NCBI GenBank assembly: GCA_040954595.2
Contig: CM082577.2
Span: 10,656,806-10,720,805, forward strand
Length of the DNA: 64,000 nucleotides
Source of the DNA: Balanoglossus misakiensis
Taxonomy: Eukaryota; Animalia; Hemichordata
Reading direction: 5' to 3'
This document shows, in pieces, positions 57,024-64,000 of this stretch. A program made the translations under genes and the position numbers. The notes below the pieces were generated by a model that was not told the origin of the DNA, searched no databases, and worked only from the letters and a program-made list of their open reading frames with translations. Within the stretch, counting starts at the first letter, position 1; each line of letters opens with the position of its first letter.

Positions 57024-58690
57024 CAAGTGTGTTGATGGCTTCAAAATGAAATATTCATTATTCATGGTAAAGTAGCTTTTGAAGCTATTTTTGAATTTGT
57101 GCTTTTATACTATAATTTGAAAAATCTTTCAAGTCTGATTAAACAGAATAGGTAACCACATATTTTACTCACCGACTGTGTATTATTCCAGAGAGAGAGA
57201 GAGAGAGAGAGAGAGAGAGAGAGAGAGAGAGAGAGAGAGAGAGAGAGAGAGAGAGAGAGAGAGAGAGAGAGATATTGTAACAAAATTAAGAGCAAATGAC
57301 ATGTTAGGTATTCGTCATACCTATATGGACATAGGGCAAAATTTATTATCTGAAAAGCACTTCAAGTTTAAAGTAACAACCAAACTCAAACTTCATTTAG
57401 TAAGAATTTCTGGTTCTGGGGACATGTTCTTTGACATAACCGAGAGCAGAGTATAACATTTTCTGACTAGACATATTACACCAGTGTGTTGATGGCTTCA
57501 AAATGAAATATTCATTATTCATGGTAAAGTAGCTTTTGAAGCTATTTTTGAAGTTGTGCTTTTATACTATAATTTGAAAAATCTTTCAAGTCTTAATTAA
57601 ACAGATTAGGTAAGTACATATTTTACTCACCTCCTGTGTATTATTCCAGAGAGAGAGAGAGAGAGAGAGAGAGAGAGAGAGAGAGAGAGAGAGAGAGAGA
57701 GAGAGAGAGAGAGAGAGAGAGAGAGAGAGAGAGAGAGAGAGAGAGAGAGAGAGATTGTAACAAAATTAAGACCAAATGACATGTTCGGTATTCGTCATAC
57801 CTATATGGACATAGGGGCAACATTTATTATCTGAAAAGCACTTCAAGTTTAAAGTAACAACCAAACTTAAACTTCATTTAGTAAGAATTTCGGGTTCCAG
57901 GGGAGATGTTGTTTGACATAACCGAGAGTAGAGTATAACATTTTTCTGATTAGACATATTACACCAGTGTGTTGATGGCTTCAAAATGAAATAATCATTA
58001 TTCATGGTAAAGTAGCTTTTGAAGCTATTTTTGAAGTTGTGCTTTTATACTATTATTTGAAAAATCTTTCAAGTCTTATTAAACAGATTAAGTAAGCACA
58101 TATTTTACTCACCTCCTGTGTATTATTCCAGAGAGAGAGAGGGGGGGGAGAGAGAGAGAGAGAGAGAGAGAGAGAGAGAGAGAGAGAGAGAGAGAGAGAG
58201 AGAGAGAGATTGTAACAAAATTAAGACCAAAGGACATGTTAGGTATTCGTCATACCTATATACCTATATGGACATAGGGGCAAATTTATTATCTGAAAAG
58301 CACTTCAAGTTTAAAGTAACAACCAAACTCAAACTTCATTTAGTAAGAATTTCTGGTTCTGGGGGACATGTTCTTTGACATAACCGAGAGCAGAGTATAA
58401 CATTTTTCTGACTAGACATATTACACCAGTGTGTTGATGGCTTCAAAATGAAATAATCATTATTCATGGTAAAGTAGCTTTTGAAGCTATTTTTGAAGTT
58501 GTGCTTTTATACTATAATTTGAAAAATCTGTCAAGTCTTACTAAACAGAATAGGTAACCACATATTTTACTCACCGACTGTGTATTATTCCAGAGAGAGA
58601 GAGAGAGAGAGAGAGAGAGAGAGAGAGAGAGAGAGAGAGAGAGAGAGAGAGAGAGAGAGAGAGAGAGAGAGAGATTGTAACAAAATTAAG
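57024..58690. repeat. Tandem array of ~460-480 bp units containing (GA)n tracts (left part)
   Basis: Units start near 57024, 57481, 57964 and 58426 (CCAGTGTGTTGATGGCTTCAAAATG); highly similar to one another. Confidence 0.95.
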
Positions 58691-58703
58691 TGAAAGTGAA
58701 AGC

Positions 58704-60413
58704 TTACAGGTCATAGTGAAAATTAGTGAAATATGTGACTGGCACTGCCACCTCTATCACATGCATACTATTGGTTAACTCATGAAATTCAAAACTGTGA
58801 TGCTGAGAAATGTGCCATCTGCTTAAATGGTCAGCTAAGCGATTATCCTGACCCTGAATATGCACCGCTTTAAGTTCAAAACTATTGAGTGCGGACACTA
58901 GCCATAACTCTCGTCAATATTGAAGCATATGAAGGTCTCGTGAGCGACCTGAATTAATGACAGTGACTGTTGCCATATTATCGCAAAACACCTGAATGCG
59001 CTGGCCTTTCCACAGATGGCCCACAGACGACACGCAACAAGCACTGTTAAAAGTTCTAACGCATTAATATGTAAACCCTGACTAGTAACAGGTAAAGGAA
59101 ATTCTGTGTGAAAATACAGTCCTTGAGAAAAGCCCCCGCAGCCTGAGAGGCAGGCGTCAGTAGAAAAAACGGCATCTGGTGTACTCCATCTAGAAGCTGG
59201 GATAACAGATACTCCGTTGTATAAAGGTAAAAAGGTACGCCACCAAACTAAGTCAGCGAAGAATTGCGAATCTAGAAAAATGCGAGGTGATTTAAACTGC
59301 TGTCTAAGTAACTGTAACATACGGGAGAAAAACACTCGTCCTGAGCGAACACATGTGGCAACTGAATTCAGCTTGCCTAACAAAGACTGAAATTGACGCT
59401 TGGGAACAGAGACTTTTGTGTCCCACTCATCAAGCTCTGTGAGTAGGGTGGATAACTTGTGTGCTGGAATGCGCATGGTCATAGCCACAGTGTCGAATTC
59501 AATACCGAGAAAAACCATGCAAGTGGACGGCGCTACTGCTTTATCCTGCGCCTCCTCTAGACCGAGCTGTGATAAAAGTCGACCAAGGGATTCAAAGGCT
59601 GCCATGGCTTTGTCTGGCGCCTCTGCACCCCCAAAATCATCTAAATAATTGATGCCAGCGTAACCATTCTGTCTAAATAAATACATAACTGCATTTGTGG
59701 TACGTTGGCAGGCTAATGCAGCAGAGCGAAGCCCGAAGGGAAAAACACGATCAAAAAAGAATAAATGATGCCATGAAAAACCAATGAGATTATAATCTCG
59801 AGGGTCAATGAAAATTTGCCGATAGCTCGGCGTAAGTCTCTCTTGTATAACAGGCAACCGGGGCCTTTGTCCTGGATAATTTGTGAGAAATGATCTAAAG
59901 ATGGGTACGACAGTTTTATGTGATAACCATCATAAAAGTCTGAAGAGATTCCGTCATTGACAGAAAAGTGTTCTGGAAAGCTGAGGTCCATGACGACGCG
60001 ACGGCGTGAAGAGTCCTTTTTGGGCACAGTTTGAAGTGGAGACACCACGAACCCGTGAGGAAATGGGCTGATTGTGAAAGGTCCGGCTGTGGCCCCAGCG
60101 GCGACTTCAGTGCTGATGAAGTGGTCCACATCGTCGGGAAACATCAAGGCCGAAGGGTGATTATGGATGTCGAAGACTGGTAACGTGTCACGGGTATAAC
60201 CGATAGGCCAGCCAAAATGGTGATAGTCACAAATGATATTGTCAGCATAATGTGCCAGCAGTGATCTCCATAACGGCAACACTAATTTAGTCGGAACGGG
60301 ATATTGAGACCTTGGTAGTTTGGTAACCCGGATGTAGAAACTTGCGCATGTAAGGCACAAATATTGGCTAAAGAAAGTTCCGATGAGGGAGACGTGCTCG
60401 ACGGAAAGTTTAA
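58704..60413 (-). pseudogene. DIRS-type reverse transcriptase/RNase H, frameshifted
   Basis: Motifs SPLQTVPKK..RRVVMDLS, KRDL..AYRQI, FPFGLRSA, NYLDDF, FSTDAC, INALEL, CDN, NRLADHLSR. Frameshifts at ~59825 and ~59015 and an in-frame TGA at ~58915. Confidence 0.9.
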
Positions 60414-62640: not shown

Positions 62641-63132
62641 ATTGTGACGACAAGCGGCGAAAAAGACGGATTTTTGGGAGAAGTTTTAAGCGAGCGACTG
62701 CTCGGAAAAAGTGACTCTACAAGATGGCGGAAGCCCTACAAAAGTAGCAATTCTCTCCGGAAGGCGGGAAGACGCACTACACAGAGGGCGCCCCAAATTA
62801 CACCCAAGGGGTTGGGCCCACATTTGAATAATAACTCATGATAGGGAGGGCAATATCACGAAGCCTGCACGAGGGATTGTGCTCTCTGACCATAATATTG
62901 ATGGTGCCCGAGCCCGGGTATCATCAATATTATGGTCAGAGAGCACCAGCCCGAGGGCAGGCTTCAAATCGTGATGTTACCCGAGCAGCATGTGTTATTA
63001 ATTTTGTTACGCCGAAAATTTGAACGTACATACACTGCAGAATAGAAGAACGTAGGTTGCGTCATGTCGTACGTTGCTGAGAATGTAAATTGTCTCGATC
63101 CCCCAAGGGCTATACCTACTTCGAACTCGGAT

Positions 63133-64000
63133 AACTTAAACTTCATTTAGCAAGAATTTCGGGTTCCAGGGGAGATGTTGTTTGACATAACCGAGAGCAG
63201 AGTATAATATTTCTCTGATTAGACATATTACACAAGTGTGTTGATGGCTTCAAAATGAAATATTCATTATTCATGGTAAAGTAGCTTGTGAAGCTATTTT
63301 TGAAGTTGTGCTTTTATACTATAATTTTAAAAGTCTCTCATGTCTTATTAAACAGAATAGGTAACCACATATTTTACTCACGAACTGTGTATTATTCCAG
63401 AGAGAGAGAGAGAGAGAGAGAGAGAGAGAGAGAGAGAGAGAGAGAGAGAGAGAGAGAGAGAGAGAGAGAGAGGAGAGAGAGAGAGAGAGATTGTAACAAA
63501 ATTAAGACCAAATGACATGTTAGGTATTCGGCATACCTGTATGGACATAGGGGCAACATTTATTATCTGAAAAGCACTTCAAGTTTAAAGTAACAACCAA
63601 ACTTAAACTTCATTTAGTAAGAATTTCGGGTTCCAGGGGAGATGTTGTTTGACATAACCTAGAGCAGGGTATAACATTTTTCTGATCAGACATATTACAC
63701 CAGTGTGTTGATGGCTTCAAAATGAAATATTCATTATTCATGGTAAAGTAGCTTTTGAAGCTATTTTTGAAGTTATGCTTTTATACTATAATTTGAAAAA
63801 TCTTTCAAGTCTTATTAAACAGAAAAGGTAACCACATATTTTACTCACGATCTGCGTATTATTCCAAAGAGAGAGAGAGAGAGAGAGAGAGAGAGAGAGA
63901 GAAAGAGAGAGAGAGAGAGAGATTGTAACACAATTAAGACCAAATGACATGTTAGGTATTCGTCATACCTATATGGACATAGGGGCAACATTTATTATCT
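63133..64000. repeat. Tandem array of ~470 bp (GA)n-containing units (right part, continues off the window)
   Basis: Same unit as 57024-58690; units start near 63232 and 63700. Confidence 0.95.

Follow-up and report, generated by a model that had tools for sequence, protein, structure and literature searches.

A tandem array of candidate one-codon exons precedes a ROCO gene

The DNA analysed here, a 64-kb window of Balanoglossus misakiensis (contig CM082577.2, positions 10,656,806 to 10,720,805), carries on its minus strand six near-identical units, each with three nucleotides set between a splice acceptor and a splice donor, and these lie upstream of a gene for a Roc-COR GTPase (ROCO protein) with a C-terminal death effector domain (DED). 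Judged by their sequence context, the triplets are probably spliced exons of a working gene. The reading that we tentatively favour is that they are one-codon exons within the 5′ coding portion of this gene, which would be included as varying subsets and so give a variable run of residues before the GTPase domain. The array feature itself is real and non-random. The acceptor-NNN-donor pattern occurs on the minus strand six times as an exact match and was found in none of 100 shuffles, and no seventh copy was present further in the window when up to three mismatches were permitted. The array comprises the following features, given in the sense direction of the gene.

63922-64000, minus strand: 3′ tail of a seventh unit, cut by the window edge and forming the upstream intron part of unit 1; 97.5% identity over 79 nt to the unit tail
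63849-63851, minus strand: candidate 3-nt exon 1, ATC (Ile); tract of 56 nt, AG-free zone of 115 nt
63382-63384, minus strand: candidate 3-nt exon 2, TTC (Phe); tract of 91 nt, AG-free zone of 150 nt
58691-63132, minus strand: broken retroelement in sense orientation, 4442 bp, in the intron between units 2 and 3, replacing about 95 bp of the unit
58575-58577, minus strand: candidate 3-nt exon 3, TCG (Ser); without CCTAAC, with CTTAAT; AG-free zone of 123 nt
58113-58115, minus strand: candidate 3-nt exon 4, GAG (Glu); predicted hairpin across both splice sites, z -2.1
57631-57633, minus strand: candidate 3-nt exon 5, GAG (Glu); predicted hairpin across both splice sites, z -3.4; CCGAAC
57173-57175, minus strand: candidate 3-nt exon 6, TCG (Ser); unit similarity stops at 57026; 630-nt intron before the Roc exon

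Each unit is built in the same order, namely a (TC)n tract of 56-106 nt, an 11-nt purine-rich spacer, CAG, NNN and GTGAGTAA. The acceptors are preceded by AG-free zones of 115-165 nt, and the motif CTTAAT lies just ahead of the tract in all six units. CCTAAC is present in four of the six, having been replaced by CCGAAC in unit 5 and removed by the insertion from unit 3. The unit periods are 467, 462, 482 and 458 bp, the introns between units are 455-479 nt long, and the units are 93.1-97.8% identical when the triplet is left out. A blastn search of the window recovered no other copies of the unit except the 79-nt tail at its edge. Since the last 79 bases of the window are a unit tail, the array continues past it, with at least one more unit upstream.

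An earlier, sequence-only reading of this DNA had described the array, and the letters and positions that it assigned to the six triplets are exact. It had also listed signals conserved between units, of which the acceptor, donor, tract and AG-free zone recur in every unit and CCTAAC does not. Its description as a tandem array holds for the six near-identical units, but these are not continuous, being interrupted by the 4.4-kb retroelement. The association that it drew with the ROCO gene stands for the window, where all unit copies lie in the array.

The triplet is the most variable part of the unit

When the six units were aligned, diversity at the three triplet positions was 0.73, 0.80 and 0.53, compared with 0.044 in 150 flank columns. 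The minimum number of changes was five in the three triplet columns and 18 in the 161 flank columns that are covered by all six units (0.11 per column), a ratio of 14.9. Treated as a single site, the triplet gives a Poisson P of 2.7e-5 for this excess, or 0.004 when multiplied by all windows, and a permutation gave P 0.011 for any 3-column window. The single-site P remained at 0.6-3e-5 when one TCG and one GAG unit were dropped, and in a longer alignment the best window not touching the triplet contained 2 changes. The hypervariable codon proposed from the letters alone was thus confirmed, the triplet lying about 15-fold above the unit-wide background.

This variation is sharply bounded, with the acceptor CAG and donor positions +1 to +8 invariant in six of six units and all three bases between them variable. 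The four codons specify four different amino acids, and there is no stop among them. Relaxed constraint should not be able to push the rate of change past that of neutral flanks, so the excess would call for selection in favour of differing codons or for a mutation process that acts locally. We also note that informative flank columns disagree between units, indicating recombination or conversion inside the array. CpG decay was considered as a source of the variation and rejected, as the observed states are not TG/CA products.

The downstream frame is open throughout, with no start codon of its own

Seven exons, running from 56542 to 50897 on the minus strand, join into 2448 nt or 816 codons with the sole stop at the end, and all of their GT-AG junctions are intact.

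56329-56542, minus strand: ROCO exon with the pre-Roc helix and G1 box; Pfam Roc E 2e-4, below cut-off; phase-0 acceptor; no in-frame ATG before residue 27
55374-55672, minus strand: ROCO exon (Roc); G3 box DYAV, compared with DxxG in relatives, from alignment to relatives
54770-54872, minus strand: ROCO exon (Roc), by homology; its acceptor follows a (TC)n tract and a 268-nt AG-free zone
53643-53839, minus strand: ROCO exon, by homology; Roc G4 region with an 18-bp tandem repeat
52162-53428, minus strand: ROCO exon, end of Roc and COR; Pfam COR-A E 2e-13, above cut-off; 53-58% identity to the four best P. flava hits
51725-51788, minus strand: ROCO linker exon; GT-AG bounds preserve the frame
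50897-51200, minus strand: last ROCO exon, death effector domain and stop; Pfam DED E 1.5e-12, above cut-off

The arrangement that defines ROCO proteins, Roc followed directly by COR, is found here, with COR-A scoring above its cut-off and a full-length alignment to annotated Roc-COR proteins. Among the GTPase motifs, G1 and G4 are intact and G3 has Val for Gly, a change that may compromise the GTPase switch. A sequence search of the PDB with the COR exon gave no match. In a protein search the best relatives were from Ptychodera flava (53-58% for the four best hits) and Glandiceps (44-45%); over the alignment, identity was 53-57% to five P. flava models, 43-45% to three Glandiceps models and 39% to Saccoglossus. 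A 22-row tree places the gene as sister to five P. flava proteins, with support of 92/91 (not starred). Two features of the locus and one of its relatives are recorded in passing. The 18-bp tandem repeat (53708-53796, minus strand) encodes five copies of a six-residue unit within Roc that is absent from the aligned relatives; a 172-bp tandem repeat of 2.9 copies lies at 49369-49856, downstream of the ROCO stop codon; and in P. flava relatives P0002 and P0010 COR is fused to a C-terminal glycosyltransferase domain (PF00534).

The position of the array with respect to the start codon bears directly on whether its codons could be translated. The 26 residues ahead of the first Met of the Roc exon resemble those of Saccoglossus, Glandiceps and Ptychodera relatives, and the unspliced frame 5′ of this exon meets a stop after 31 codons, none of them Met. 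Since conserved residues stand before Met27 and no in-frame ATG precedes them, coding exons must sit upstream. The start codon is therefore most likely upstream of the array, which would place the array in the coding region. That the array lies upstream of a Roc-COR-DED gene and ahead of a phase-0 junction, as the sequence-only reading had it, was borne out, and any subset of the codons stays in frame. Two fragments from ENA have Gln at the position of the gene's CAG (possible CAG). A phase-1 acceptor 7 nt downstream was also considered and set aside, the Gln position in these two fragments favouring phase 0.

Public models of the family are of a kind that one would expect if its 5′ ends were hard to annotate. 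Of the 11 P. flava models with a G1 box (P0010, which lacks it, was left out), eight begin at a Met inside the first Roc strand and three have unrelated N-termini; nine Glandiceps models are also discordant upstream. Absent and discordant N-termini fit 5′ exons that defeat annotation, without proving it. The close short hits P0027, P0171 and P0173-P0175 are ENA fragments that resemble single genomic exons. As a separate observation, Glandiceps P0007, P0008, P0009 and P0017 have in common a short variable segment, some 11 residues long, immediately ahead of the Roc exon; the sequence before that segment is unrelated in each, and their 5′ exons may be mis-annotated.

Splice signals of the units are strong, and the gene uses the same kind of tract elsewhere

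In regulated vertebrate microexons the donor is described as strong, and both the tract and the branch point as lying at a distance from the AG (PMC12871342; bioRxiv 10.1101/2024.09.17.613571). In the 64-kb window an AG-free zone of at least 110 nt precedes 18 of 7140 AGs, and these include the six unit acceptors and that of ROCO exon 54872. The window has ten pure pyrimidine runs of at least 30 nt, every one on the ROCO strand, six in the units and four before the exon 54872 acceptor, so that the gene employs such a tract at an acceptor supported by homology. The bare core YAG-NNN-GTRAG recurs at 10 other sites in the window; it is preceded by a pyrimidine tract only in the six units.

The computed pairing of the unit donors with U1 is -7.4 kcal/mol for ATC and TTC, -11.0 for TCG and -12.4 for GAG, compared with -4.2 to -11.2 kcal/mol for six ordinary donors of the ROCO gene. 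A value of -7 kcal/mol is reached by 2.8% of the 4155 GT sites on the minus strand. A hairpin is predicted at the splice sites with z -2.1 and -3.4 in the two GAG units, and in these units (57592-57647 and 58074-58129, minus strand) it is strengthened by flank changes 16-25 nt past the triplet; the other four units are at shuffle level. No compensatory pairs were found among 11 in the hairpin, and a search of positions 50000-64000 against Rfam gave no match. As a general conserved control element the hairpin is ruled out, being significant in two of six units and showing no covariation. It could conceivably dampen the GAG donors, which are the strongest.

Taken as a mechanism, the favoured reading would run as follows. 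The unit, an intron plus a codon, would have spread by tandem duplication, with recombination homogenising the units and selection keeping the codons different. A strong intronic half of the donor would free the three exonic bases to vary, and unequal donor strength would give unequal inclusion of the codons.

Weighing the favoured reading against its alternatives

Several observations weigh against the favoured reading, and they are set out here, beginning with those that concern the missing N-terminus and continuing with those that bear on particular alternatives. The stretch that separates the last unit from the Roc exon holds eight weak donor candidates with an in-frame ATG, from which a first exon could in principle be built. 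Their pairing energies are -0.6 to -3.8 and the weakest donor of the gene itself is at -4.2, so it is unlikely that a first exon is concealed in this stretch. Protein and profile searches found no transcript-derived relative whose N-terminus was spliced, and scans of JGI metagenomes with the Roc exon alignment and the unit motif returned nothing. The N-terminal module of the gene lies outside the window, and Saccoglossus P0172, the relative with ankyrin repeats from which its architecture might be modelled, is not grouped with this gene in the tree.

A credible, though unlikely, alternative is that all triplets are spliced in together as I-F-S-E-E-S, with diversity arising between alleles or paralogs by unit gain, loss, recombination and codon selection. 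This would give the same anatomy and the same codon hypervariability, and the mosaic of flank variants among units, a sign of recombination, agrees with it. No UGC occurs within 100 nt of the acceptor in any of the six units, so the SRRM4-type motif is absent, and the short introns and strong signals suit constitutive splicing equally well. Inclusion of every codon sits less easily with donor pairing that spreads from -7.4 to -12.4, with the purine-rich spacer at the acceptor, or with an array in which any subset is in frame; the truffle precedent discussed below is, moreover, described as alternative splicing.

The triplets might also belong to an unspliced minisatellite, lying ahead of the gene or within it, whose splice-like motifs and variable triplet arose by chance or from a mutation hotspot, for instance a quasi-palindrome. 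The triplet is covered by an imperfect inverted repeat with five variable columns in its other arm, which could hint at a palindrome-driven mutation hotspot, and the bare core, as noted above, is not confined to the array. Some further points weigh against the favoured reading itself. The two TCG triplets, and likewise the two GAG triplets, probably share their identity through descent, which reduces the independent states to four; the scan-wide P for the triplet is only 0.004-0.011; conservation of the splice sites is indistinguishable from the general 95% identity of the units; and as the six units derive from one ancestor, their splice signals amount to one observation and not six. We nevertheless consider a minisatellite improbable, since core and long tract are combined only in the six units, all of these are on the sense strand directly before a coding exon that has no start, the variation ends exactly at AG and GT, and no Rfam match was found.

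It is slightly less probable again that a once-working cassette sits in a decaying or silent copy of the gene and that its triplets are no longer used. The Gly of G3 is kept in 20 of the 20 relatives with a recognisable motif (21 were examined) and is Val here, and the gene has a long terminal branch (0.59), so this copy may be impaired. The 4.4-kb sense-strand retroelement has in addition removed one CCTAAC from the array, and together with the G3 change it allows for a decaying copy. Decay is hard to reconcile with 816 codons that are open to a normal stop across intact GT-AG junctions, with a DED and a COR-A that both pass their Pfam cut-offs, and with six of six splice-site pairs intact. 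A one-of-many choice, with mutually exclusive cassettes contributing one or two codons per transcript, has in its favour the near-identical tandem cassettes and the predicted hairpin over both splice sites of the GAG units with their strongest donors (z -2.1 and -3.4), but is very unlikely given a hairpin at shuffle level in four of six units, no compensatory pairs among 11, and introns of at least 455 nt that offer no obvious steric exclusion.

What added residues would do to the protein

If the one-codon exons of the favoured reading are indeed included in varying subsets, the six visible codons could yield up to 44 distinct peptides, all in frame. Their likely effect depends on what lies upstream. 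In Saccoglossus P0172 Roc-COR is preceded by a coiled coil and ankyrin repeats, and Glandiceps P0019 carries a DED at its N-terminus. When residues are counted back from the conserved Met, the acceptor maps to residue 379 of P0172, which in the AlphaFold model of that protein is inside a predicted helix (residues 361-392; blocks with a predicted local distance difference test score of 75-90) that connects the last ankyrin repeat with the first strand of Roc; the ankyrins themselves are modelled with low confidence. If the gene is built like P0172, each codon would be expected to add one residue to this helix, rotating the upstream module with respect to the GTPase. By the Saccoglossus analogy, the added residues would thus lengthen and rotate the helix that links the N-terminal module to Roc. 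If there is no such module, the array would instead yield a variable N-terminal peptide.

A role as an immune sensor is possible, by analogy and from domain content only. A broader proposal, which we put forward as doubtful, is that acorn worms independently evolved expandable arrays of one-codon exons in ROCO genes, used combinatorially in each animal to tune the length, register and surface of a helix leading into the GTPase switch of an intracellular sensor.

Relation to known systems

The nank genes of Tuber melanosporum are described as diversified by alternative splicing of codon-sized microexons (PMC4986451, PMC10197012, PMC3689799 and PMC13449251, citing a 2012 study, PMID 22289772). 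Like the array described here they have runs of 3-nt segments in nucleotide-binding genes, and nank is presented in these sources as an expanded family of candidate non-self sensors for which codon-by-codon diversification is proposed. The nank genes, which are fungal, encode a NACHT NTPase, contain tens of microexons and are reported to be alternatively spliced, whereas the present gene encodes an animal Roc-COR GTPase with a C-terminal DED, has near-identical units of about 460 bp with six visible codons, and is known from DNA alone. Tandem 3-nt segments, each between an acceptor and a donor, are present in the sequence. The NACHT and ankyrin architecture of nank is not, the domain order being Roc-COR-DED, with ankyrins only in the Saccoglossus relative. 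By its anatomy, then, the array resembles the truffle system of codon-sized microexons, and the gene is not a member of the nank family.

Brown-algal LRR-ROCO genes are reported to have repeated exons upstream of Roc that undergo diversifying selection, shuffling and alternative splicing (PMC3341825; PMC11378527). The exons described there are 72 nt long and encode one whole LRR each, in contrast to the single codon and absence of a domain here. Diversifying change in repeats upstream of Roc is seen in both, in this case as the roughly 15-fold excess and four codons for four amino acids. In schistosome micro-exon genes, tiny symmetrical exons are reported to generate sets of protein variants with differences of a few residues, and transposons have inserted in the loci (PMC4350168). 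The products of those genes are described as secreted, with signal peptides, a coding region made mostly of microexons, and a distribution restricted to flatworms; ours is a cytoplasmic-type multidomain GTPase with one array and with 2448 nt of coding sequence in ordinary exons. That a single 3-nt exon can be spliced in an animal is reported for micro-Ex8 of Drosophila hth (PMC7392893). Isolated 3-nt exons, whether hth micro-Ex8 or those regulated by SRRM3/4, have a similarly set-back tract and strong donor, and are single and conserved where those of the array are tandem and hypervariable. Of the UC-rich tract and UGC that mark SRRM3/4 targets, the UC tract is present and TGC is missing from the last 100 nt before all six acceptors.

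Hemichordate Roc-COR(-DED) proteins, from P. flava, Glandiceps talaboti and Saccoglossus kowalevskii, have the same domain order as the present gene, with N-termini absent or inconsistent in most models. Hemichordates are a deuterostome lineage without known adaptive immunity. A literature search for arrays of single-codon exons in animal ROCO genes found nothing, subscription papers being mostly outside its coverage. If the triplets are spliced, they would represent protein diversification in an animal one residue at a time, converging on a mechanism that we found described only for the NLR-like genes of truffles, and would explain why most public models of the hemichordate ROCO family lack an N-terminus. 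They would also offer a naturally occurring series of near-identical 3-nt exons, in which the codon is the main difference, for the study of how the smallest exons are defined without a UGC motif. Were one-codon arrays used combinatorially in each animal, acorn worms would provide the first equivalent in animals of the nank mechanism of truffles, one that had escaped annotation throughout a whole gene family.

The retroelement within the array and a neighbouring gene

The insertion between units 2 and 3 contains a gag-like open reading frame (61468-62640, 391 aa) that has no match to Pfam or to a known family. Frameshifted pieces of reverse transcriptase and RNase H lie at 58707-60444 (RVT_1 E 6e-4, below the curated cut-off), and there is no recombinase piece among the frames listed. 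By the layout of its motifs the element may be DIRS/Ngaro-like. It includes a 130-bp direct repeat (61016-61289), an imperfect inverted repeat (62829-63000) and, near 60400-61150, what looks like a nested insertion with a 21-bp direct repeat at its bounds.

Elsewhere in the window, a cyclin C-like gene at 29783-30598 on the minus strand (Pfam Cyclin_N and Cyclin_C_2) consists of a single uninterrupted open reading frame of 271 codons. It is intronless, in contrast to its intron-rich neighbours, and is possibly a retrocopy.

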